From an uncultured delta proteobacterium (GTDB taxonomy: Bacteria > Myxococcota_A > Polyangia > Polyangiales > B10-G4), in contig CAVSGI010000006.1 in assembly GCA_963727445.1 (NCBI GenBank), positions 384,001 to 448,000 on the forward strand: a DNA stretch of 64,000 nucleotides, read 5' to 3'. How positions within the stretch are numbered: the first letter of the stretch is position 1; every line of letters begins with the position of its first letter. Below, piece by piece: positions 47,859 to 64,000 of the stretch. The position numbers and the translations under genes are program-made. The notes beneath the pieces are model-generated. The model was not told where the DNA came from, searched no databases, and saw nothing but the letters and a program-made list of their open reading frames with translations.

Positions 47859-47894
47859 CCAGAGTGAGCCTGTGTGGGCGGCGACCTACATCGC
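47859..47894. promoter_or_regulatory. 36-bp conserved intergenic element, copy 1
   Basis: CCAGAGTGAGCCTGTGTGGGCGGCGACCTACATCGC; 34/36 identical to 52517-52552. Confidence 0.65.
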
Positions 47895-47957
47895 GAGGCT
47901 CGCAAAGCATTCGCGTGTCTTCTGTGTCCGGGGCAGGTACGATCGAACACGCTTTCC

Positions 47958-49214
47958 GTGGTTCGTCCGGTCGTCTCGCTGCTTCTGATGGTCGCTTCCG
48001 GCTGCATTCCGCCGGAGCTCGGCGAGTGTGATGAGACGGTCGCCCGCGTCGTCGTTTACACCGACGACGCGCAAGGTCTTCCAGCCTACGCGGGCCAGGC
48101 GCTGATCAACCAGTCGTGCGGCGCGGGCGCTTTCTGCCACAGCGAGGGCGCCGTCGACCGCCACGGCGCGCCGCTGGGCATGGACTTCGACCTCGCCCTC
48201 GCGACGGACGAAGCACAGACCGAGCGCCTCCGTCGCGACCAGGCCACCGCCCACAGGCTCGGCCGATGGATTCTCCTCGAGGTCCAGCAAGAGACGATGC
48301 CGCCGGGTGCCATCGGCGCCGAGGTGGCCGCCTCGGGGCCCGCCTACCGGAACCTGCCGGCGCTCTTCAGCCCAGAGGGGAAGGAGACCCTGCGCAACTG
48401 GCTCGCGTGCGGGAGCCCGGTCGTGGAGCGCGTCTCTGCCGACCGTCCGACCGGCGTGCAGCCGGTGGGCGCGATCGTGCCCGCGCTCCCAGCCACCCCC
48501 CCGGGCGGCTGCACCGGTGGTCTCGTCGACTGCGGCGGTGCCTGCGTGAACACGACGACCGATCCGGCTCACTGCGGCGGTTGTGACACCGCGTGCGATG
48601 CGGCTTCTTTCTGCAGCAACAGCAGCTGCACCACGGACTGCCCAACGAGCACCACCGAGTGCAATCGGTCCTGCGTGGACACCGGCACCGATCCGATGAA
48701 CTGCGGCGGCTGCGGCGCGGTGTGCGCGTCAGGGGAGACGTGCAGCGGGGGCGCCTGCGCCTGCAGCGCCGGGCTCGTGGATTGCGGTAGCGGTTGTGTC
48801 GATACCCAGAGCTCGGCGGATGATTGCGGCGGGTGCGGCATGGCCTGCGCCTCGGGCGAGGTCTGCGAGGCGGGGACGTGCGTGGCGTGCGGCGACAGCA
48901 TCAGCTTTTCCCGCGACGTGATGCCTCTCTTCGGCGGATGCACCGGCTCGACGTGTCACTCCGGCGTGCGGCCCGCGGGGAACCTCGATCTGAGCTCTGG
49001 AAGCATGTGCAGCTCGATGGTCGGCGTCGCCTCGAGCTGCGGATCGCGCCTCTACGTCGAGCCGGGCGCGCCCGACCGGAGCTACGTAGTCGACAAGCTG
49101 CGTGGCCGGAACCTCTGCCGCGGCCAGCAGATGCCGCTGCGCGCCCCGGCCCTGCCGGAGTCGCAGATCGCCACCATCGAAGACTGGATCTGCGGCGGCG
49201 CCCGGAACGACTGA
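47958..49214 (+). CDS. Lipoprotein with two atypical heme-c-like domains flanking Cys-rich (Stig1/MXAN_6577-like) repeats
   Basis: CGAGAFCH...MPP...LRNWL and CTGSTCH...QMPL...IEDWI; repeats of CV.T..DP..CG.C...C. Confidence 0.7.
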   Translation: MVRPVVSLLLMVASGCIPPELGECDETVARVVVYTDDAQGLPAYAGQALINQSCGAGAFCHSEGAVDRHGAPLGMDFDLALATDEAQTERLRRDQATAHRLGRWILLEVQQETMPPGAIGAEVAASGPAYRNLPALFSPEGKETLRNWLACGSPVVERVSADRPTGVQPVGAIVPALPATPPGGCTGGLVDCGGACVNTTTDPAHCGGCDTACDAASFCSNSSCTTDCPTSTTECNRSCVDTGTDPMNCGGCGAVCASGETCSGGACACSAGLVDCGSGCVDTQSSADDCGGCGMACASGEVCEAGTCVACGDSISFSRDVMPLFGGCTGSTCHSGVRPAGNLDLSSGSMCSSMVGVASSCGSRLYVEPGAPDRSYVVDKLRGRNLCRGQQMPLRAPALPESQIATIEDWICGGARND

Positions 49215-49220
49215 GGAGAG

Positions 49221-49808
49221 TCAGGGCCCGCTGCGGACCAACTGGATGTTGCAACGGCTCGGGCCTGCGCTGCCGCAGGAGAGGGTCCATGTGGAGGTGG
49301 CGGCGGCCCACATCCCCGTGCAGCTCTCGCCGCCGCCGGTGCCGAGGGTGAGCGAGGCGCCAGAGAGCGAGCCCGCCCCGGAGATGGTCGCCGTCCCATT
49401 CAGCGCGCCGGCGGAGCTGAAGGTGGCGGCGCAGGCCATGCGGTCGCCGTCGATGCGCTGCGTCGCGCTGTTGTCGAGGTCGCCGCAGCCGATGCCGGTC
49501 GCGAAGACCGAGAACGCCCCGAAGACATCCGGACAGTTGACGGTGGAGGAGGTGTCGGCAGGGCCGGAGTCGGCCATCGACGAGTCCGTGGGTGCGCCGT
49601 CGGACGCCGACCCGTCCATCGGGGGCGAGGTGTCGCGCCGCGGCGTGGCCGAGTCGCGAAGCGCCCCGCTGTCCGCGCTCGCTCCGCCGTCGGTCGGTGG
49701 GCCCGCCGGGTCGCCTCCCACCTCGAAGCAGCCGCCCGACACGACGACCGCCACCGCGCACAGAGCGTGCGCGATGTGCGGTCGCCGCGGGTCGGGGAGC
49801 GGACTCAA
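49221..49808 (-). CDS. Hypothetical lipoprotein
   Basis: Hydrophobic leader ending SGGC, D/S/T linker, Cys-containing domain. Confidence 0.6.
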   Translation of the reverse strand: MSPLPDPRRPHIAHALCAVAVVVSGGCFEVGGDPAGPPTDGGASADSGALRDSATPRRDTSPPMDGSASDGAPTDSSMADSGPADTSSTVNCPDVFGAFSVFATGIGCGDLDNSATQRIDGDRMACAATFSSAGALNGTATISGAGSLSGASLTLGTGGGESCTGMWAAATSTWTLSCGSAGPSRCNIQLVRSGP

Positions 49809-49812
49809 GGGT

Positions 49813-51021
49813 TCACGGCGCGGCGCAGGTGCCGCTCACGCAAGGACGCCCCATGCAGGCGTTGCCGCAGGAGCCGCAGTTCGCTGGGTCGACGTTGGTG
49901 TTGGTGCACCGGTCGCCGCAGAGGGTGAGACCGGCGCGGCACCCGACGCAGACGCCGAGTCGACAGGTCTCGTCCGCAGCGCAGGTGGTGCCGCAGCCGC
50001 CGCAATTGAACTCGTTGGTCTGCGTGTCGACGCAGGCGCCGGAGCAGTCCGTGAGTCCGGCGCCACAGGTCGTCGTGCAGCTGCCCATGGAGCAGACTTC
50101 ACTGGACCCGCAGGCGGTGGTGCAGTCGCCGCAGTGCGCGGGGTCGCTCGCGATGAGCACACAATCCGTGCCGCAGGCCGTCTCGCCCGGCGCACAGCTG
50201 GTCATCATGCAGCTGCCGCCGTCGCAGTACTCCATGGGGGTGCACATGGTGCCGCAGGCGCCGCAGTTGTTCGGGTCGGTGTCGGTGTCCACGCACATGC
50301 CCATGCAGTCGGTCTCGGTCGTCGCGCACATCGCGGAGCAGCTCCCCGCCGTGCACACCTCGCCCGAAGCACACATGGTGCCGCAGCCCCCGCAGTTCGT
50401 GGGGTCGGTATCGGTGTCCACGCACGCCCCGCCGCAAGAGGTCGTCCCCACGGGACAGCCACACGCGCCCATGGTGCACACCTCACCCGTGGCGCAGGCG
50501 GTGCCGCAGCCGCCGCAGTTCGCGGCGTCGGTGTCGGTGTCGACGCAGGCGCCGCTGCAGTCCGTCAGACCCGTACCACAGCTGGCGGCGCAGCTGCCCG
50601 TGTCGCAGACCTCGCCCGAAGCGCAGGCGGTGCCGCAGGCGCCGCAGTTCATGGGATCGACGAGGGGATCCACACAGGCCATGGAGCAGACGATCTCGCC
50701 CGCCCCACAGGTGAGCCCGGCGTCCGTCATCGCGTCGCCGGCCGCGTCACCCGCGGCGTCGCCGGCCGCGTCGCCCGAGGCGTCGGCCATTCCATCCATG
50801 GTGGCGTCCATCGAGCCATCCATCGAGCCATCCGCGGCGCCGTCCATGGTGCTGGTGTCCGCCGGACCGGTGTCGCCGGTGCTGGTATCGGCCGGCCCGG
50901 TGTCCCCTGTCGAGGTGTCCGGGGTGCCCGTGTCCAAGAGCCCCGTATCCGAGGTCGTGGAGTCGTCGCCGCAGGCGGCCAAGAGCAGCCCGCTCAGACA
51001 AAGCATGGAAATCAAACGCAT
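49813..51021 (-). CDS. Cys-rich repeat lipoprotein (Stig1/MXAN_6577-like repeats)
   Basis: LAAC lipobox; about 7 repeats of CVDT.TD..NCG.CG..C. Confidence 0.8.
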   Translation of the reverse strand: MRLISMLCLSGLLLAACGDDSTTSDTGLLDTGTPDTSTGDTGPADTSTGDTGPADTSTMDGAADGSMDGSMDATMDGMADASGDAAGDAAGDAAGDAMTDAGLTCGAGEIVCSMACVDPLVDPMNCGACGTACASGEVCDTGSCAASCGTGLTDCSGACVDTDTDAANCGGCGTACATGEVCTMGACGCPVGTTSCGGACVDTDTDPTNCGGCGTMCASGEVCTAGSCSAMCATTETDCMGMCVDTDTDPNNCGACGTMCTPMEYCDGGSCMMTSCAPGETACGTDCVLIASDPAHCGDCTTACGSSEVCSMGSCTTTCGAGLTDCSGACVDTQTNEFNCGGCGTTCAADETCRLGVCVGCRAGLTLCGDRCTNTNVDPANCGSCGNACMGRPCVSGTCAAP

Positions 51022-51094
51022 AAACCCTCCGTAAGCAAATCGGTCTGTATTTCAGCCTACGACTTTTTGTCGTCGTCGAGAACCAAGCCGTAGC

Positions 51095-52483
51095 TCACTC
51101 CACTCGGAAGACGCCGCGCAGGTCCTCGGTGGCGCTGATGTAGCTTCGCGCCCCGGTGCGATCGCGATAACTCCACGCCCGGAACTGATAGATCATCCCG
51201 GCGTCCAACATCGCGCCGCTCCAGGTGTAGGTCACGGTCGCCGCGCCGCTGACGCTCGGGATCATCGTGTTCTCGTGCACCACCTCGCCGAAGGCGTCAT
51301 AGACGCGCAGCTCGTAGCCGTCCTCGGAGCTGTCGTCGGCCCACTCGAAGGTGGGATCGCCGCTGATGGTCTCGATGGTGTCGGCGCCCGGCATGATGAC
51401 CTCGAGGGCGGCGGTGACCTTGAAGACGTCGAGGTCGACGTCCGTGCCGGAGACGTCGATGCGGATGACCTCGGTGCCGCCGATGCCCGCGTCGGGGTCG
51501 CGCACCAGATCGTCGTTTTCGAAGGCCGCCAGCACGGCGTAGCGGCCCGGCGGCACGCCGGCGATCTCGTAGGCGCCGGTGACCATGTCGGCGCGCAGGC
51601 CGGCCGGTGCTTCGCCGCGCACCGTCGCCGGGTCGAAGGTGGAGTCGACCACCAGGATCACCGAGGTGACCTGCTCGACGCCGCCCGCATCGGCGAAGTT
51701 GATGGTGCCGCGCACCGTGGCGAGGCCGTCGGTAGTGGCGGTGAGGGTGACCATGTCGACCGCGCCGGTGGTGGTCAGGGTCTCCGGGTGGACGTTCAGG
51801 CCGGCGCGATAGCCCGACACCGTGGTGTCACCTGCAGGCACGTTGAAGAGGATGAAGGTGCCGTCGCGATCGCTGATGGCCGTCGAGACCGCAGTGCCTC
51901 CCTGCTCGGCGATCACGAGCACGCCGTCACCGTCGGGGTTGTCGATGCTGCCCTCGATGCGCCCGCCGCCGCTGCCGCTCGGCAGGGCGATGAGCGCCAC
52001 GTCGGTGGTGGCGTTCATGATGAAGCGTCCGTCCGCGTCCTCCATCAGCTGCATCTCGGCGACCTCGATGGGGAGGGCCTGCCGCGGCGGCTTCGGGAAG
52101 GTCTGATATCCGTCGGCGTCGACGCGCAGGGTCACGCTCTCCGCATTGAACGATCCGTCGTCGGCGCGGTCCACCGCGATGGGGAGCACGTAGGTTCCGT
52201 CCGCCGCCGTTCGGGCGACGACTGAACGGGGGGCGGCGCTCGCGTCGATGGCCACCACCGTCGCGCCTTCGATGCCGGCGCTGGTCGCCGCGTCGAAGAC
52301 GGTGCCGCGGAGCTGGATCGGAACGAAGCAACCCGGCGTATCGGTGCCGGTGATGTTCTCGCAGACCAGCCCCTCGTCGCAGCCTTCGGAGGTGCCCAGC
52401 GTGCAGGTCTCTTCGTCGCCTCCGCAGGAGAACAGGAGGCCGCAAAGAAGGAAAAGGATCGTTGAGGTAGCAAAGCGCGTCAT
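51095..52483 (-). CDS. Lipoprotein with carboxypeptidase-regulatory-like (Ig/transthyretin-like) domains
   Basis: LFSC lipobox; LRGTVFDAAT..GIEGATV and FILFNVPAG. Confidence 0.7.
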   Translation of the reverse strand: MTRFATSTILFLLCGLLFSCGGDEETCTLGTSEGCDEGLVCENITGTDTPGCFVPIQLRGTVFDAATSAGIEGATVVAIDASAAPRSVVARTAADGTYVLPIAVDRADDGSFNAESVTLRVDADGYQTFPKPPRQALPIEVAEMQLMEDADGRFIMNATTDVALIALPSGSGGGRIEGSIDNPDGDGVLVIAEQGGTAVSTAISDRDGTFILFNVPAGDTTVSGYRAGLNVHPETLTTTGAVDMVTLTATTDGLATVRGTINFADAGGVEQVTSVILVVDSTFDPATVRGEAPAGLRADMVTGAYEIAGVPPGRYAVLAAFENDDLVRDPDAGIGGTEVIRIDVSGTDVDLDVFKVTAALEVIMPGADTIETISGDPTFEWADDSSEDGYELRVYDAFGEVVHENTMIPSVSGAATVTYTWSGAMLDAGMIYQFRAWSYRDRTGARSYISATEDLRGVFRVE

Positions 52484-52516
52484 GAGTCCAGAGTATAGAA
52501 ACCGTGACGGGGCTTA

Positions 52517-52552
52517 CCAGAGTGGGTCTGTGTGGGCGGCGACCTACATCGC
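52517..52552. promoter_or_regulatory. 36-bp conserved intergenic element, copy 2
   Basis: CCAGAGTGGGTCTGTGTGGGCGGCGACCTACATCGC in a second divergent intergenic region. Confidence 0.65.
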
Positions 52553-52582
52553 AACGTTCGTCCCACGAAGTACAATGAAGTG

Positions 52583-55253
<2,671 letters not shown>

Positions 55254-56834: not shown

Positions 56835-57442
56835 TCAGGTCCGGACCACGCCGTTCAGGCTGACCATGTAGGCGTCGCGGGCGCCGTCCTTCACGAAGCT
56901 CTGGACGGTGCGGGCGAGCGTCGCGCCGAGCAGACCGATCATCGGCAGGTGTTCGCCGCCTTCACACGTGGCTGAGTTCTGGGGGGCTGCTCGCCCCCTC
57001 CGGCCCCCTCGGCCTGCGTGTCCTCCCGGTCCGGCGTGAAGTCCTCGTCCCAGCGGACGAGACCGAAGCTGCCGTCGCCGCTGAGCGCAGCGTGGACGAG
57101 GGGGATGTCGGCGCCGCGGCAATAGTCGCTGGCGATCATCCGGCTGTCGTAGTTATCGAAGCAGTCGACGACCAGGTCGCTGCCCGCGAGCAGCTCATGG
57201 TCGTTGTCCTCGGTGAGGCGCACGCCGAAGGCTTCGCTCTTGATGCCCCAGAAGTTCGCGAGCTGAAGCTTCATCGCCTGCGCCTTGTTCTTGTTCAGGC
57301 TCTGCTTCACGAAGACCTGCGCGAGCAGGTTCTTGGACTCGACGCGATCGAAGTCGACGAGCCGCAGCTCCGCGCCGAGCGAGCGGCACAGAACCACGGA
57401 CGTCGACCCGAGCGCGCCGATCCCGACAAAGGTGATGCGCAT
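56835..57442 (-). CDS. ThiF/MoeB/E1-like adenylyltransferase; -1 frameshift near 56971
   Basis: MRITFVGIGALGS, VDFDRVESKNL, NKAQAM, DLVVDCFDNYDSR; second frame continues ATCEGGEHLP; ATG overlaps the upstream TGA. Confidence 0.85.
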
Positions 57443-58017
57443 CAGGACTCCTGGGGGCCGGGAGCACACTCCCGGCTTCGGGCCGCTGCGCTCCCGGTCC
57501 CGCGCCGCACCGCTGCGCGGTGCTCTGCGGGCCCGTCCGCTCCGCGTCCCGAAGCCTTCTGCGCACGGCCGGGAGCGCACTCCCGGCTTCGGGCCGCTGC
57601 GCTCCCGGTCCCGCGCCGCACCGCTGCGCGGTGCTCTGCGGGCCCGTCCGCTCCGCGTCCCGAAGCCTTCTGCGCACGGCCAGGAGCGCACTCCCGGCTT
57701 CGGGCCGCTGCGCTCCCGGTCCCGCGCCGCACCGCTGCGCGGTGCTCTGCGGGCCCGTCCGCTCCGCGTCCCGAAGCCTTCTGCGCACGGCCGAAGGGCA
57801 CCTTGGGACGCAGATAGATTCGGCCGTGGCCGAAGCGGTCGATCACGTAGTGGTCGAACGCGCCCTCGTGGAGGTTCGCGATGTGGAGGCCCGGCAGGCC
57901 CCCCGAGCGGACGAGCTCCACCGCGATGCGGCGGATCTCGCGATCGCCCATGTGTGGCTCGATCGCGCGCGGGTAATCCACGCTCATGCCGTTGTAGGTG
58001 ATGTTGAGGATGGCCAT
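57442..58017 (-). CDS. Putative ubiquitin-like modifier: 76-aa core ending PKVPFG, plus a repeat-derived tail
   Basis: GAAGGAGG RBS; TGATG coupling to both JAB and ThiF; codons 1-76 (58017-57790) show a strand-strand-helix-strand pattern. The Ubl fold is inferred from context. Confidence 0.65.
   Translation of the reverse strand: MAILNITYNGMSVDYPRAIEPHMGDREIRRIAVELVRSGGLPGLHIANLHEGAFDHYVIDRFGHGRIYLRPKVPFGRAQKASGRGADGPAEHRAAVRRGTGSAAARSRECAPGRAQKASGRGADGPAEHRAAVRRGTGSAAARSRECAPGRAQKASGRGADGPAEHRAAVRRGTGSAAARSRECAPGPQES
57456..57788. repeat. 3 tandem copies of a 111-bp palindromic REP/MITE-like element
   Basis: Units start at 57456, 57567 and 57678; internal hairpins GCCGGGAG-N4-CTCCCGGC, GCACCGC-N3-GCGGTGC and GGCTTCGGG...CCCGAAGCC; GGCCG recurs at 57789. 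Confidence 0.92.
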
Positions 58018-58436
58018 CAGTCGCCTCCTTCCCTCTTCGTGGAGCGTCGCGCACCTGACGCGAGCCGCATTAGATCGGCCCACCAGGGCTCGTCGTCCCC
58101 TTCGAGGATGCGCTCCTCGCGTGCGGGCTCCTCGCCCGCCTCGCCGGGAGGTCCGTAACTTCTAACCACGACCTCGGCCGGCGCTACCACCGAAAAGCGG
58201 ATCGGCCGCGCCAGGGCCGTGACCAGCGCCGCCATGGTGGTCTCGTCTTCCTGCGAAAACGCCGCCGGTCCACGCGGATGACTGTGCGCGATCTCGACAA
58301 GCGTCTCGCGCCGCGACCAGATGGCGTCCCAGCGGGCCCGCGAGTCGGGGAGGGCGCTCGGGTCGTCCGATGCATCGGACCACGCGATCACCTCCCCCTC
58401 GCAGATCAGGAGGCAGACCTCGCGAGCCTCGCTCAT
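58017..58436 (-). CDS. JAB/MPN (Mov34) metalloisopeptidase
   Basis: N-terminal Glu (REVCLLI) and JAMM motif HSHPRGPAAFSQED. Confidence 0.85.
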   Translation of the reverse strand: MSEAREVCLLICEGEVIAWSDASDDPSALPDSRARWDAIWSRRETLVEIAHSHPRGPAAFSQEDETTMAALVTALARPIRFSVVAPAEVVVRSYGPPGEAGEEPAREERILEGDDEPWWADLMRLASGARRSTKREGGD

Positions 58437-61400
58437 CGACGGCGGCGTCGCAGGGCGAGCGCGGCGAACACCACGAGGGCCGCGAACGGTCCGCCGACGG
58501 GAAGGCCACCGCCGGTCGTCTCGCAGCCGCAGCCCCCGCCGGTCACCATGCCGGGCGGGCCCGGATCGGTGCCCCCGTCTCCGCCGCCGCCGTCACCGCC
58601 ATCGGTCCCTCCGTCGGGACGGGGCGGCATCGGGCAGTCGAGAGGCTCGGCCTCGGTGGTCGGTGCGCCGCCGTTCGACAGCGGCGTCTCGTAGTTGCCG
58701 GTGTTGCGGTTGTCGTGCCGGAACTCCGGCCAGGGCTGCGCGGAGTCCGCGGGCGCGTCGGTGTTCCAGGCGAAGAGGTAGCCGTCGCGGGTGGTGATGA
58801 CGATCTCCACGAGGTCGTCGCCGTCGATGTCGGCCGCCGCGACCGAGCCGGTGATCCAGCCGCCGGTGAACTTCGGAAATCCGTCGGCTTCCTCTCCGCA
58901 CGCGTCCCAGGCATGCACCCAGTAGCCCGCCGAGCCGCTGACCAGCTCGGGGTAGGGGTCGGCGTCCACGTTCATCACCGTCGGATTCACGAAGAAGAGG
59001 TAGTCCTCGATCGCGCGGGGGAAGCCGGGGAGTTGGTTGCCGGTCTGCGTCTCCCAGGCGCCGACCTGGTGGGTGAAGGGCTCGTTGGAGTAGCCGCCCG
59101 CGAGGTTGAGGCCGAGGCGAAGCCCGGCGCCCCCCGTCACGAACTCGGGTCGGCCATCCTGATCGAGGTCGCCGAAGGAGCCCGCGGCGAACGTGTTGAG
59201 CAGGGGCTTGTCGAAGGAGTCGATGACGTCGCTCGAGTAGCCGCGGTCGTTCGAATCGAGGATCAGGATCGGCATGCCGTCGAAGCCGCTGTCGCGTGGA
59301 GGCTGGATGCCGTCCCAGATGAAGATGCTGCCGGCCTGACCGGCCGCGGCGACGTCGGGCCTTCCGTCTGCGTTCACGTCGGCCATGGCGATCGGGGAGG
59401 TGATCCCCTCACCGATGAAGGGATAGAAGTTGATGCTCGCGATGGTGATGGGCCAGTTGTCGTGCTCGGGCCCGCCCTCGTGGAGGTTTCCATCGCCGTG
59501 GATCAGGTGCACCGCGCCGCTGTTGTTGTCGTCGCCCACCTCGTTCGAGCCGACCGCGATGTCCACGATGCCGTCACCGTCCGCGTCGCCCACAGCCGCG
59601 GGCGTCACGATGCGGCTGACCTGCGCGTCCGCGGGATCCATCCAGAGCTGCGGAGCGATGATCTCGACGGGGAAGCCCGGCTGCGTCGTTCCGTCGCCCC
59701 GGAACGCGTAGACGTGGCCGTCATAGGCGGGGAGCACGATCTCGAGGAGGTCGTCCCCGTCGAGGTCGACGAGTGTCGCCGCCGCGAGGGTGCCGCGCTC
59801 GATGGGGGAGTCGGGGTTCATCGGGCCCATGCGGAGCGGGTCGCCGCTGGGGATCTCGGGGAGCGCGATGGGGAAGCCGGCCACCGGCGTTCCATCGGTC
59901 CCGTGGAAGGCGTGCAGGTCACCCTCGGTCGACGACAGGACGATCTCCAGCGTTCCGTCGCCGTCGAGGTCGCCGATAGCGGGCGCGTTCAGGATGATCG
60001 AGGGGTGCAGGTCGTCGGTGGGGATGGCGCCGGTCGCGTAGGCGGGCGAGCCCAGCACGTTGTAGGGCTCCGCCGCGTCGAAGCCGCGGAGCGTGCCGAG
60101 GGCGATCGGGAAGCCCGGGACCTCGGTCGCATCGGCGTTGAAGGCGTGGAGCAATCCGTCGGCGTCGGCGTAGATGATCTCCGCCATGCCGTCGTTGTCG
60201 ACGTCGGCCAGCTTCGCCGAGCTCTCGCCGCTCGCGGCCGGGTACTCGTCGACGTCGTTGCGCACGCCGAGGGGGATGGGGAAGCCGGGCAGAAGGTCGG
60301 GGTCGCTGTGGATGTTGAAGACGCGCCGGGACTCGCCGAGGACGTCGCCCAGCGGTGCGGGATAGTGCGCCGTGACGCGAATGCGCACGGTCACCGTGTA
60401 GCGGTTGTGGATGCCCTCGGCGTCGCCGTTGTCGATCTCGACCGCGCTCACGTCCCAGCTGGCGAGCTCTCCGTCGATGGCGGCGGTCTCGTCCGCGCCC
60501 ATGGCGAGTGTCTCCCAGTCGCCTTCCTCGGGCTCGACGCCGCGCGCCCATTCGATCACGTAGTCGAAGCTCGGCGCGCGTCGCGCGTCCAGGTGGCCGC
60601 GGATCGACACCGTGGGCTCGGTGTCCGGATAGACCACGCGGAACCAGTCGGGGTAGACGATGTCGACTTCGGGCGGGATCGCCCCGTCACGCACCGCCTC
60701 GACGGCGTTGAAGGTGTTGACGCGGCCGTAGCCGAAGCGCTGATCCCAGCCGGGCCGGCTCGGGTACCAGCGCCGGTCGAGGACCGCGCCGCCCGGACGG
60801 CTCTCGGGAACGTCGATGTCCATCGCCGTCATCAACAGGAGCTGCCGCGCCTCTTCGGCGGAGAGCGGCGGATCGAGGGGGCCGCCGGGACGGTCGGCCG
60901 CGATGGCCGACGAGTAGAGGATGCCGGCCACGCCGGAGGTGACGCCGGTCGCTTCCGAAGAGCAACCGGTTCCGGGGGCGCTCAGGACGAGCTGGCCGCC
61001 GTAGTTCGTGCAGTTGTTGAAGGCGAGGTAGCTGTCGGCGTTCTGGGGATTGCCGCCGGCGTAGGTGATCGCGTGGACGTAGAGGGTGTGGTTGGAGGTG
61101 CCGGGGTAGTTGTGGTGATAGCTGTTCTCGTCCGCGGCGCTGGCGACCACCAACACGTCGTTTTCGTAGGCGTAGTCGAGCGCGCGGCGCATGAAGGTGG
61201 TGTTGTTGAGGCTGCCCAGCGCCTCCTGGATGACGCGCGCGCCCGAGTCCACCGCGAACACCACGCTCTGACCGAAGTCCTGGGCGTCGACGATGAAGCT
61301 GTCGCCGGTGCGCACCATCAGGAGGCGGCAGTTGGGGCACTGGCCGATGTCGCCGCCGTCGTTCCCCGATGCCGTGCTGTCCTTACCCTCGCCGGTCCCG

Positions 61401-62158
61401 TGACCGTAGCGGTTGTCGTCCTGTGGGTCGTTGTCGTCAGCGTAGGTGTCCCAGCCGGAGATGTCGTCGACGTAGCCGTTGCCGTCGTCGTCGACCCCAT
61501 CGCTGCACAGGGTGATCAGGTCGCCCGGATCCGCGATGCCGTTCATGTTGCCGGCGCCGTCGAGGGCGGCGCTGAGCGCATCGCGGCTGGCCGCGTCCCT
61601 GCCGACGAACCAGTCGTTCATCGAGAGGTACCCGTCGCCGTCGAGATCGATGCGGTCGCCCATGTGCCCCGGCTGCGGGTCGGGGAGGCAGTTCGGGTCG
61701 AGGCCGCGCGCCTCGAGCTCGGCCTGGTTGATGTAGAACTGGTTGGTCAGGTCGCGCTCGTCCCACTTGATGCCGCTGTCGAGGACGGCGATGACCACCG
61801 AGCGCTCGCCGGTCGTGTACTGCCAGGCCATGTCGCTCCAGGTGCCGCTCCCCATCGCGACCTCGTCGTCACGGAAGCTGTCGCGCGCCGTGGCGGCCGG
61901 CGGGGCCCAGGACCAGTAGTTCCATGCGCCGCCGCTGGCGCGGCTCCAACAGACGCTGCCGCCGGTGCAGGTCTCTCCGTCGCCCTCGATGTCGTAGCCA
62001 TAGGCGTGATCGTCGGGCCAGTTGGCGGGGTCCTGCATGTCCGCTGGCGTCGAGCCCGTGGGCGGCGGCCAGGCCGGGTTCTGGGCGTCGACCTCGGGGG
62101 CGAGCCAGGCTGTGAAAGACGCCACAAGGCCGAAGAAGAGCAGGTGTCGCGGGCGCAT
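58433..62158 (-). CDS. Secreted S8 subtilase-like protein with FG-GAP/VCBS repeats and MYXO-CTERM anchor
   Basis: VIAVLDSG, DDDGNGYVDDISGWD, YGHGTG, GCSSEATG, FGYGRVN; GDLDGDG..EIV repeats; C-terminus GGGCGC...AALALRRRRR. Confidence 0.85.
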   Translation of the reverse strand: MRPRHLLFFGLVASFTAWLAPEVDAQNPAWPPPTGSTPADMQDPANWPDDHAYGYDIEGDGETCTGGSVCWSRASGGAWNYWSWAPPAATARDSFRDDEVAMGSGTWSDMAWQYTTGERSVVIAVLDSGIKWDERDLTNQFYINQAELEARGLDPNCLPDPQPGHMGDRIDLDGDGYLSMNDWFVGRDAASRDALSAALDGAGNMNGIADPGDLITLCSDGVDDDGNGYVDDISGWDTYADDNDPQDDNRYGHGTGEGKDSTASGNDGGDIGQCPNCRLLMVRTGDSFIVDAQDFGQSVVFAVDSGARVIQEALGSLNNTTFMRRALDYAYENDVLVVASAADENSYHHNYPGTSNHTLYVHAITYAGGNPQNADSYLAFNNCTNYGGQLVLSAPGTGCSSEATGVTSGVAGILYSSAIAADRPGGPLDPPLSAEEARQLLLMTAMDIDVPESRPGGAVLDRRWYPSRPGWDQRFGYGRVNTFNAVEAVRDGAIPPEVDIVYPDWFRVVYPDTEPTVSIRGHLDARRAPSFDYVIEWARGVEPEEGDWETLAMGADETAAIDGELASWDVSAVEIDNGDAEGIHNRYTVTVRIRVTAHYPAPLGDVLGESRRVFNIHSDPDLLPGFPIPLGVRNDVDEYPAASGESSAKLADVDNDGMAEIIYADADGLLHAFNADATEVPGFPIALGTLRGFDAAEPYNVLGSPAYATGAIPTDDLHPSIILNAPAIGDLDGDGTLEIVLSSTEGDLHAFHGTDGTPVAGFPIALPEIPSGDPLRMGPMNPDSPIERGTLAAATLVDLDGDDLLEIVLPAYDGHVYAFRGDGTTQPGFPVEIIAPQLWMDPADAQVSRIVTPAAVGDADGDGIVDIAVGSNEVGDDNNSGAVHLIHGDGNLHEGGPEHDNWPITIASINFYPFIGEGITSPIAMADVNADGRPDVAAAGQAGSIFIWDGIQPPRDSGFDGMPILILDSNDRGYSSDVIDSFDKPLLNTFAAGSFGDLDQDGRPEFVTGGAGLRLGLNLAGGYSNEPFTHQVGAWETQTGNQLPGFPRAIEDYLFFVNPTVMNVDADPYPELVSGSAGYWVHAWDACGEEADGFPKFTGGWITGSVAAADIDGDDLVEIVITTRDGYLFAWNTDAPADSAQPWPEFRHDNRNTGNYETPLSNGGAPTTEAEPLDCPMPPRPDGGTDGGDGGGGDGGTDPGPPGMVTGGGCGCETTGGGLPVGGPFAALVVFAALALRRRRR

Positions 62159-62231
62159 CGATTCCTTCCTGTCGGAGGCGGGCAGGCTCTCACGGCGCGG
62201 GCGGGCTGACCATAGGACCCACGGCGCTTTT

Positions 62232-63176
62232 TCAGCGCCGCGTGATGACCAGAAGGCCGGTATCCACCGCTTCGCGGATGACCGCGGGGAGGCTCTCGAG
62301 GGTGAGCTCCTCATCGTGACCGGACAAACAAATCCCGGCGTCGTAGACGTGCAACGAGCGCTGGTCCACCACCGTGATGAAGCGCTCCCCGAGGAAGCGG
62401 AAGGTGACCTCGAGCAGCGCGCCGGATTGACGACGCGTCGCGAGCAGCGTCGCGCCCACCGCGGAGAGCGCCGCCTCGGCCAGCGCCTCGGGCGCGCCCT
62501 CGCGGACGCGCGTGCGCCATGCCGCCCGCCGCCGCTCCGCCTCGGCCATGGCCTTTTCGCGCTGACGCTCACGGGCCCGTGCCTGCCGTTCCTCGGCCAA
62601 ACGTCGCAGCACCTCCTCGGCGACGGCGCCGCCGCGGCGCGCGACGTCGATGGCCGAGGTGCGCACCTCGGAGAAGGACACGGGGATCCCGAGGCGGCGG
62701 GACACGCGATTCAGAAGCGCGAAGCCGTACGCGAAGCGCAGGGAAGGGCCCACGCCTTTGAGCGCGTCGAGGCCGCGCTCCTCCTCGAGCGCGAGGCGTG
62801 CCTCCATCTCCGCGTCCCCGTCGAAGTCGAAGCCTCCGAAGAGCACCTCACCGTCGTGCCACCTGCGGCCAATCACGATCGACAGCGGCTCCGGCTCGTC
62901 CTCGGGCACGAGATGCAAGCGCACGCTCTCGTCGCCGGCGAGGAAGAGCCAGCCGTCCATGTAGTGTCCGCGCACCTTGGGGCGCTCCTCGAGCGACTCG
63001 GGCGCGTCCACCGCTTCGAGGGCGCGAGCCTTCCGCCCCTCGACCTCGAAGCGGTGCCAGCCGGCGGTCGCCTCTCCCTCGAGTCTGAGCCGCCGGCCTT
63101 CCGCCGACACGATGGTGCCGCCGAGATACGGCAGCACCATCGACTGCTTCTTGCCGAGGAGCTTCTCGTAGTCCAC
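62232..63176 (-). CDS. Hypothetical protein with coiled coil and C-terminal DAGICL domain (candidate divergent E2-like)
   Basis: Clean ORF whose only Cys lies in VYDAGICLSGHDEELTLESLPAVIREA; start uncertain (63176 GTG or 63191 TTG); E2 label is inference. Confidence 0.6.
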   Translation of the reverse strand: MDYEKLLGKKQSMVLPYLGGTIVSAEGRRLRLEGEATAGWHRFEVEGRKARALEAVDAPESLEERPKVRGHYMDGWLFLAGDESVRLHLVPEDEPEPLSIVIGRRWHDGEVLFGGFDFDGDAEMEARLALEEERGLDALKGVGPSLRFAYGFALLNRVSRRLGIPVSFSEVRTSAIDVARRGGAVAEEVLRRLAEERQARARERQREKAMAEAERRRAAWRTRVREGAPEALAEAALSAVGATLLATRRQSGALLEVTFRFLGERFITVVDQRSLHVYDAGICLSGHDEELTLESLPAVIREAVDTGLLVITRR

Positions 63177-63244
63177 TAGTGCCTGGTCCAATGACGTAGA
63201 AGGGTTCTCGCTCGTTCGTCGGCCGCCTCGCGGCGTCGGGAAAC

Positions 63245-64000
63245 CTAGCTCTCGACCCCGACGAGCTTGGTCTTCATGACCTTTTCGACGAGGCCGAAGG
63301 CCGGGGCGCCCGTGAGGGTCGGGGCTTCGAGGAGCGCCGACAGGACGCGCGGGACCTGGTACGGGTCGTCGAAGTGCTCGATGCCGATGGTGCTGAAGGG
63401 CACGGCGAGCTCGCGCGCGAGCTGCTGCACCGTCTCGCCGCGGCTCCAGGCGACGTTGAGGATCAGCGCCAGCGCCGCGGGGTGATAGCCGCAGTCGTTG
63501 AAGACCGACGCCAGGGTGCGCCCGTGCTCGCCGGCCTCGTCGCCGACGACAATCACGATCAGCGGCTCGGCCCGCGGCAGGCGCACGCCTGACGAGTAGA
63601 GCGCGCGCACCGCGGCGCCGTGCACCGTGCCGCCTTCGGCCTTGATGCTGCCGAGCATGTGCTGAACCGCAGCGCGGTTCGGTGCCTTGGGCCGGTGCAC
63701 CCAGCCCATGGTGTCGAAGCTGGCGATGTGGAGTCGGTCCATCGGGAAGCCCGCGAGGATGCGGGACAACGCCTCGACCGACTTGTCGATGGCGCCCTGC
63801 ATCGAGCCCGAGCGATCGATGAGGAACATCACCTGGACCTTGGCGTCGGCGGTGGCCTCCTCGACGGCCTTCTCGACCGCGTGCTCCGCGGCCGACTCCA
63901 GCTTCTCGCGCACGGCGTCGCTCTGAACGTTCTTCGCGATGTTGAGCGCGCGCTGGTCGGTGGCGCTCTCCACGGCCTTTTCCCAGGCCGCATAGACCTC
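63245..64000 (-). CDS. von Willebrand factor A (VWA) domain protein, 5' end outside the window
   Basis: MIDAS motif FLIDRSGSM, GGT and VVGDE; the frame stays open to the window edge. Confidence 0.85.
   Translation of the reverse strand, partial: EVYAAWEKAVESATDQRALNIAKNVQSDAVREKLESAAEHAVEKAVEEATADAKVQVMFLIDRSGSMQGAIDKSVEALSRILAGFPMDRLHIASFDTMGWVHRPKAPNRAAVQHMLGSIKAEGGTVHGAAVRALYSSGVRLPRAEPLIVIVVGDEAGEHGRTLASVFNDCGYHPAALALILNVAWSRGETVQQLARELAVPFSTIGIEHFDDPYQVPRVLSALLEAPTLTGAPAFGLVEKVMKTKLVGVES

Follow-up and report, generated by a model that had tools for sequence, protein, structure and literature searches.

A conserved cassette joining a candidate ubiquitin-like conjugation pathway to a Ro60-like protein and Y-RNA-like units in bacteria and large viruses

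A 64,000-nucleotide stretch of the genome of an uncultured delta proteobacterium of the Polyangiales (assembly GCA_963727445.1; contig CAVSGI010000006.1, hereafter C6, positions 384001-448000), called the window below, holds a minus-strand gene cassette that runs past its end. What is new in this cassette is that a probable bacterial pathway of ubiquitin-like protein (Ubl) conjugation is joined with a divergent Ro60–Y RNA particle, in an arrangement that also occurs in large viruses. Its five genes and their RNA units almost certainly form a conserved module. With a probability of about 0.5, we read this module as a bacterial and phage Ubl-conjugation pathway that takes its specificity from a Ro60–Y RNA particle at its centre and acts in conflicts over tRNA and translation. 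The cassette thereby joins two subjects so far studied apart, namely bacterial Ubl conjugation (Bil, Bub, CBASS), in which target choice without E3 enzymes is an open issue, and the Ro60–Y RNA particles of bacteria, for which effectors have been identified in very few species.

Composition and recurrence of the cassette

Plain numbers below are window positions, those preceded by C6 are contig positions, and L-numbers label the compared loci, L001 being the locus described here; its genome (G000, 9.5 Mb in 27 contigs, 69% GC) is called the own genome. The genes are as follows.

C6:448995, minus strand: start of the Ro60-like gene, 995 bp past the end of the window
63245..64000, minus strand: 3' part of the Ro60/TROVE-like ring gene, predicted helical N-terminal part and vWA domain with the metal-binding motif (MIDAS) DRSGS; Pfam VWA_2, E 4e-8
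62232..63176, minus strand: g2, putative E2 of 314 amino acids (aa) with the motif DAGICL; predicted tandem β-barrels, long helix and C-terminal α-β4-Cys-α with Cys283
58433..62158, minus strand: S8 subtilase and FG-GAP protein, 1241 aa, a lineage-specific insertion
58017..58436, minus strand: JAB/JAMM peptidase with E6, H51-S-H53, S61 and D64; Prok-JAB, E 1e-9
57790..58017, minus strand: core of the putative Ubl, 76 aa, from the ATG at 58017 to RPKVPFG ending at 57790
56835..57442, minus strand: minimal ThiF/E1 with its ATG at 57442 and GIGALG; ThiF, E 4e-23; no CxxC
56964-56966, minus strand: Cys codon of the ATCE motif of E1

The preliminary description of this DNA had reported co-oriented genes with TGATG overlaps between JAB and Ubl and between Ubl and E1. 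Indeed, all six genes lie on the minus strand and both overlaps are present, the second arising only because the Ubl frame runs on through three 111-bp repeats. Its expectation that the five genes recur elsewhere was borne out. Cellular loci were drawn from one Kofleriaceae metagenome-assembled genome, a 401-genome sample of the phylum and the best 80 of 215 metagenome matches. Of the 92 cellular loci that hold any part of the cassette, 34 have the full order Ro60-like, g2, JAB, Ubl, E1; this count excludes 15 canonical TROVE loci and one false match. The incomplete loci are mostly on short contigs, and some long contigs lack Ubl and E1 or the Ro60-like gene. Homologues carry the source labels Polyangiaceae and Kofleriaceae, with one Acidimicrobiales. 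A scan of IMG/VR, whose label is the basis for the phage identity of these contigs, gave 31 loci on contigs of 12-619 kb, four of which duplicate others. All five genes stand in order in 21 of them, E1 alone is missing from the fetched DNA of 4, another 5 hold the Ro60-like gene and g2, and 1 stops after the Ro60-like gene. This gene set is far above chance, and the genes flanking it are not conserved. The E1/JAB/Ubl set with a single-Cys partner is thus a distinct and conserved one, as had been proposed, the Cys, JAMM and Gly residues being kept in all homologues counted.

The S8 gene had been placed in the operon in brackets, and rightly so: it matched at the own locus only, the related cassettes gave no sign of it, and four cassette-bearing genomes have orthologues on other contigs. 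We therefore rejected it as a member of the system. In the myxobacteria-like hosts the cassette is mobile and often decaying. The locus L020:8727-10427 is a relic with internal deletions of most of the Ro60-like, JAB, Ubl and E1 genes, in which g2 remains. A distant subtype (L025:4600-10915 and L148:7100-12314) combines a TROVE-like vWA protein, a g2-like protein (AGAVCLQG), an E1 (DVCDYP) and tRNA-like units, without a JAB match at these two loci. At L025 there is also an extra gene of 273-286 aa, and the candidate Ubl, 66 aa long, ends in VRPEAVYG.

tRNA genes, up to 34 per locus, were found in 24 of the 28 viral loci scanned. Open reading frames (ORFs) that look by eye like HNH endonucleases often lie between the viral cassette genes, and a tmRNA gene adjoins one viral cassette (L175:11865-12243). 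Some chromosomal cassettes, too, are flanked by tRNA arrays (up to 17 genes) that include a gene for an HNH endonuclease (L018:5926-14119, L070:3309-11494, L052 and L077). A quick tree of 60 Ro60-like proteins, which excludes the own frameshifted copy and three duplicates and whose careful search is unfinished, has one cellular clade of 29, with three cellular copies nested among viral ones. The cassette has thus been exchanged between viruses and cells, in one direction or the other.

Among the papers listed in literature searches, none was found to describe the cassette, and none concerned a bacterial operon of Ro60, Y RNA and ubiquitin-like genes; earlier comparative-genomics surveys may already contain the neighbourhood. 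The main text of Iyer 2006 has neither vWA nor TROVE. Nidhogg viruses of Helarchaeota are reported to carry Ro60 (TROVE and vWA) and ThiF/E1-like genes (10.1101/2021.07.29.454249); the available text treats Ro60 and ThiF apart, ties the E1 to host ubiquitin and has no mention of JAB.

The Ro60-like protein and its Y-RNA-like units

The first gene, about 580 aa long in relatives, had been taken for a VWA protein that possibly serves as adaptor or substrate. A generic adaptor is disfavoured: the intact orthologue is predicted to fold like Ro60, and the own copy has a Y-RNA-like array adjoining. For the model (AF2 of the intact L002 orthologue, pLDDT 81, pTM 0.47), the first 11 Foldseek matches are all Ro60/TROVE structures, aligned along some 560 columns; Deinococcus radiodurans Rsr follows at rank 15. 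VIA aligned 414 and 395 of its residues to 1yvp and 2nvo, against about 150-185 residues on plain vWA domains. The root-mean-square deviation is high, which with the pTM of 0.47 makes the geometry and closure of the ring uncertain. The MIDAS (DxSxS..T..D; D394, S396, S398, T457 and D486) is invariant in 32 sequences. These models thus point to a Ro60/TROVE-like protein, with a HEAT-like helical ring followed by a vWA domain.

At the sequence level, Pfam TROVE (PF05731) gave no match to the Ro60-like protein, while the control matched in 2 of 14 genomes. In hhalign, the N-terminal part against canonical TROVE reached an E of 0.024 with a probability of 2% (reversed control, E 0.11); GRW..W and downstream blocks are in register, and the sequence tests fall short of significance. 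We therefore consider that the protein probably works in the Ro60 manner yet stands outside Pfam TROVE. Its profile has matches in 11 of the 401 phylum genomes. At L024:9747-13019 the gene caller leaves the Ro60-like frame open for 1091 aa, possibly an N-terminal fusion or a mis-set start.

Upstream of the Ro60-like gene lie one to three RNA units, which are closed by a long stem and characterised by a GNCGA-like motif, CUACACGC and CACUCGG. The two units of the own locus are the only full-length ones in the own genome:

C6:449093-449258, minus strand: Y-RNA-like unit with permuted tRNA-like domain, upstream of the Ro60-like gene, outside the window
C6:449324-449438, minus strand: short Y-RNA-like unit, upstream of the Ro60-like gene, outside the window

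Among the 33 cellular loci whose upstream DNA is long enough, 16 have such units, and 8 of these 16 had played no part in the choice of the motifs. Furthermore, 29 of the 31 motif pairs in 686 kb fall within 600 bp upstream of a Ro60-like gene, and an RNA model built from bacterial units only scored at least 57 bits on full-length units of 10 different viral loci. Partial R1 matches (model positions 49-124) within tRNA arrays fall on the junctions between adjacent tRNAs and were left uncounted. Covariation was seen at 25 of 37 pairs, a value reached by 0 of 500 shuffles and with slid controls far lower; since the structure was taken from the same 14 sequences, these controls are biased in its favour. 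The own units have z values of -2.6 and -3.5.

The inserts of the units are permuted tRNAs (T, acceptor-like, D and anticodon arm), normal-order tRNAs or short hairpins. Among 33 matches to the RNA model, 28 have 7-nucleotide loops with tRNA-like positions 32, 33 and 37, in 19 different triplets (one of these loops belongs to the short own unit and is perhaps not equivalent). The permuted own unit (L001:3094-3259, minus strand) has the loop CUCUAGA, that is, a CUA (amber-reading) triplet. Of the features that define YrlA (PMC4201824), those present are the position near a Ro60 gene on the same strand, a long closing stem and a permuted tRNA-like domain in the order T, acceptor stem, D. The motif GNCGAAN0-1G, relaxed to [GC]NCGA, occurs in 14 of 21 cellular and 3 of 12 viral units. 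Against Rfam YrlA (RF02553) the units score 26-36 bits (own unit 36), under the gathering score of 69.

The predicted helical ring with vWA/MIDAS is the fold of Ro60 (Rsr) in the known Ro60–Y RNA systems, including those with YrlA/YrlB, RYPER (PMC4201824) and the phiLo Ro60 with Yrl1/Yrl2 (PMC12135203; ubiquitin is not mentioned in the available part of this paper). Also shared are several same-strand Y-like RNAs beside the gene, a CUAC element, a permuted T-then-D domain and, in part of the units, a GNCGA-like 5' motif. In contrast, the cassette protein falls outside Pfam TROVE and its RNAs under the YrlA cut-off, the RNAs have an extra anticodon arm and some hold a normal-order tRNA, and the partner is a Ubl pathway instead of PNPase or RtcB. 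From this genomic linkage, the Ro60-like protein may bind the Y-RNA-like units.

The Ubl pathway and its possible function

The putative Ubl was described as a 76-aa protein core ending in Gly. The core and its Gly are indeed present, but the own frame has no stop at PKVPFG and reads on to 191 aa with a 115-aa tail made of repeats. In 72 Ubls the Gly is conserved at the end or before a tail of 0 to more than 25 residues, and in 69 it belongs to an FG rather than a GG end, as had been noticed for the own one. Variable tails and a tolerated repeat tail of 115 aa fit trimming by JAB as in Bil and Bub, and the own tail would require such removal. Profile and HMM searches with the Ubl gave no match, an hhalign comparison with the L025 candidate was not significant, and the sequence pattern, judged by eye, would fit the ββαββ of a β-grasp. 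A search of the 30 nearest genomes, one of them of the same genus and 86% complete, did not find the Ubl. The JAMM motif (E..HxH.x7.S..D) is kept in 96 of 96 JAB homologues. E1, of about 190 aa, matches Pfam ThiF with 85 bits and is nearest to MoeB/ThiF by sequence, with all NCBIfam scores far under cut-off; GxGxxG is kept in 62 of 62 homologues and the loop Cys (TC) in 57 of 57, with CxxC in 1 of 57.

For g2, the GxCL motif is kept in 113 of 113 homologues. In its model (pLDDT 94), two β-barrels at the N terminus are followed by a long helix and then by an α-β4-Cys-α end, in which Cys283 comes after a β-meander. The start gave weak fold matches to the tandem OB of Mpa and to RNA-binding OB/TRAM domains, and the C-terminal end to domains that we take to be RWD-like. 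Position, Cys and topology, together with these weak fold hints, suggest that g2 may be a diverged E2. Searches of Pfam, PDB sequences, the ESM atlas, PADLOC and NCBIfam with the C-terminal domain returned nothing named, and a Prok-E2_B search matched 0 of 251 genomes with its controls silent as well. Matches of the domain to MCM and DUF1815 were taken as chance, whole-model fold matches are dominated by the long helix, and a g2 match at L026 (G092) was false. A word search gave 90 homologues, and 459 clusters at 50% identity match the C-terminal domain with E<=1e-10, while no match was found among INPHARED phages. A predicted complex of g2 with the Ro60-like protein scored 0.26 against a mark of 0.32 and is used neither for nor against.

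Protein conjugation through the Cys of E1 and that of g2 is, in our view, probable. A sulfur relay, in which the Ubl would be thiocarboxylated, the g2 Cys would carry a persulfide and tRNA or Ro60-held RNAs would be thiolated, is improbable: the closeness of E1 to MoeB/ThiF and the tRNA-rich setting speak for it, and Urm1/TtuB-type dual roles exist, but no rhodanese, desulfurase or thiouridine synthase was recognised at 46 cellular and 27 viral loci, whose conserved neighbours were inspected by eye and scanned in part. Likewise, ThiS/ThiF and MoaD/MoeB share with the cassette a ThiF-fold adenylase with a loop Cys and a small Gly-ended protein, whereas the cassette has an FG end in its carrier, no CxxC zinc sites in E1 and no pathway enzymes recognised among conserved neighbours. 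This agrees with the preliminary description, which had noted no sulfur-pathway genes; none is conserved nearby in the related loci.

Among conjugating systems, BilABCD resembles the cassette in its separate Ubl, E2-like Cys protein, JAB and E1, in a Ubl tail past the Gly and in the lack of an E3. It differs in that the cassette E1 is a minimal adenylation domain without IAD, CYS domain and zinc, that g2, without a CEHH pattern, carries additional barrels and a long helix, that Ro60 and RNAs are added, and that the cassette occurs in phages. Bub (6E/DUF6527) and type II CBASS (Cap2/Cap3) share E1, E2 and JAB chemistry on a C-terminal Gly; the cassette has neither their fusions nor DUF6527 or CD-NTase, and it keeps an E1 and an E2-like Cys where Bub uses Tyr/Ser oxyesters (PMC11601596). 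In the FtsH-type vWA-MoxR ternary systems with a Ubl tri-ligase (Kaur 2020, PMC7159879), a vWA protein is also linked to JAB, E1, E2 and Ubl, but MoxR, FtsH, RING E3, EAD1 and caspase are absent from the cassette, and its vWA domain lies within a Ro60-like ring with RNAs.

An anti-phage defence of the Bil kind, in which structural proteins of the phage would be tagged by the host and the VWA protein would be no more than an adaptor, would account for the E1, E2, JAB and Ubl make-up (PMC10557695) and for the patchy, mobile and decaying distribution, with matches to the Ro60-like profile in 11 of 401 phylum genomes. The presence of the whole cassette in 21 of 31 viral loci, mostly amid tRNA genes, leaves this reading, favoured in the preliminary description as possible defence, with little probability. 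Furthermore, PADLOC, whose BilD model matched at E 7e-4 only, has no Bil model for g2 or Ubl and none for the Ro60-like protein, and no defence genes were recognised among conserved neighbours. A phage-against-phage use is possible.

According to the reading that we prefer, JAB would cut the Ubl after RPKxPFG, as the variable tails suggest; E1 would adenylate the Ubl Gly and load it on its invariant loop Cys, as expected of its family; and g2, as a diverged E2, would then receive the Ubl on its invariant Cys. By analogy with Ro60/Y RNA biology, the predicted Ro60-like ring would hold the conserved outer stem of the Y-like RNAs, whose tRNA-like domains with variable anticodon loops could stand in for an E3 as tether and bait. 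Proteins that recognise tRNA, such as anticodon nucleases, or other translation-targeting factors might so be brought to g2 for tagging, and JAB, as its family does, would reverse the tag. The known tethering role of Y RNA is the basis for this mechanism, which would account for the variable anticodon arms and for the tRNA-array setting. Since large phages carry the cassette within tRNA arrays, its likely role would be to protect or steer tRNA and translation in conflict. That the particle is the specificity factor for tRNA-related targets is a tentative part of this proposal, and the RNAs, not proteins, may choose the targets. A bolder version is rather unlikely: exchangeable tRNA-mimic Y RNAs would replace the E3 in an RNA-programmed Ubl ligase, the anticodon loop would select a tRNA-attacking or tRNA-binding protein or RNA, and jumbo phages would disarm host anticodon nucleases with a cassette that has been captured by bacteria.

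Conversely, the Ubl pathway could regulate the ribonucleoprotein itself, the Ro60-like protein or g2 being tagged to switch on, localise or remove an RNA-repair or RNA-decay particle; we hold this to be unlikely. It would suit the strict linkage to one Ro60 subfamily and the weak likeness of the g2 barrels to the OB ring of the proteasomal ATPase Mpa. ORFs adjoining three viral cassettes (L151, L152 and L177), which from their motifs we presume to be RtcB-like, would suit it too. In addition, ROT/TROVE, found in some jumbo phages, is described there as an RNA-repair platform (PMC7824862). This regulation explains the hypervariable anticodon loops no better than the bait model, and the cassette has no conserved repair enzyme or nuclease. 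Very improbable, finally, is an RNA acceptor, in which case g2 would hand the Ubl to a tRNA, to the end of a damaged RNA or to the Y-like RNA, at a hydroxyl or an amine, given that the characterised bacterial E1/E2 sets conjugate to proteins (PMC10557695, PMC11601596).

With five small genes and short RNAs, the cassette is a compact and testable system that includes a new Y-RNA family with variable anticodon arms. A complete Ubl pathway beside viral tRNA arrays bears on why big phages carry tRNAs and on how they withstand tRNA-cutting defences, and, if RNA sets the specificity, the cassette could yield a programmable protein-tagging tool.

Frameshifts, repeats and neighbouring features

The own copy has a one-base frameshift in the Ro60-like gene near C6:448173 and another in E1, within the repeat hairpin at 56980-57012. 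The Cys (ATCE) previously described after the adenylation core of the ThiF enzyme is present, but out of the E1 start frame here. The Ro60-like frameshift is very likely an assembly error, and that of E1 is probably one; true decay of the own copy is possible. A codon-frame switch script counted 8.0 switches per 100 kb in six contigs of the own genome; in 24 other loci the rate was 0.5 per 100 kb, and 400 kb of a genome of the same genus had 0. The Ro60-like site was flagged, and the E1 site, which is close to the gene end, was not. In comparison with the same-genus genome, the own genome has the extra base in 22 of 25 frame-changing events. One contig of sequencing run X1, at depth 2.6, has one base fewer at the Ro60-like site, in a check made on two DNA runs with small shares, which gave no result at the E1 site; no RNA run containing this DNA was among those listed. 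A run of six G is present in many further copies of the E1 hairpin, against five in the E1 copy, and lengths vary. Such an excess of apparent frameshifts, about 8 per 100 kb against 0-0.5 elsewhere, means that the broken genes of this genome deserve distrust; it is genome-wide, with another example at 54170 (C6:438159). A 920-aa ORF joining the Ro60-like N-terminal part to g2 is an artefact of the frameshift and an open GC-rich frame.

Three separate dispersed repeat families lie inside the own cassette, two of them within coding frames (the Ubl tail and the E1 loop); the 111-bp family also forms tandem arrays elsewhere in the genome. These and the remaining feature are:

57456..57793: dispersed palindromic repeat of 111 bp, present in three copies that continue the frame past the Ubl Gly
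56980..57012: dispersed GC-rich hairpin directly ahead of the E1 Cys, carrying the one-base frameshift in G/C homopolymers
63181..63246: 66-bp dispersed-repeat remnant between the Ro60-like gene and g2, not in the conserved cassette; 48 BLAST pieces in the genome
C6:449027-449051, minus strand: terminator-like hairpin upstream of the Ro60-like gene, from a consensus scan only (6 sites against 3.0 expected)

A 399-aa ORF found at the own locus only (L001:5754-6950, or C6:451753-452949, minus strand) lies 2.8 kb upstream; its motifs (D..C, NHF, HQG, HGGG) had led us to presume an RtcB-like protein, a label that was dropped since Pfam, NCBIfam and PDB lend it no support. Without relation to the cassette, the window also carries at 47874-55253 a cluster of Cys-rich secreted repeat proteins, which we take to be of a kind found in myxobacteria-like genomes.

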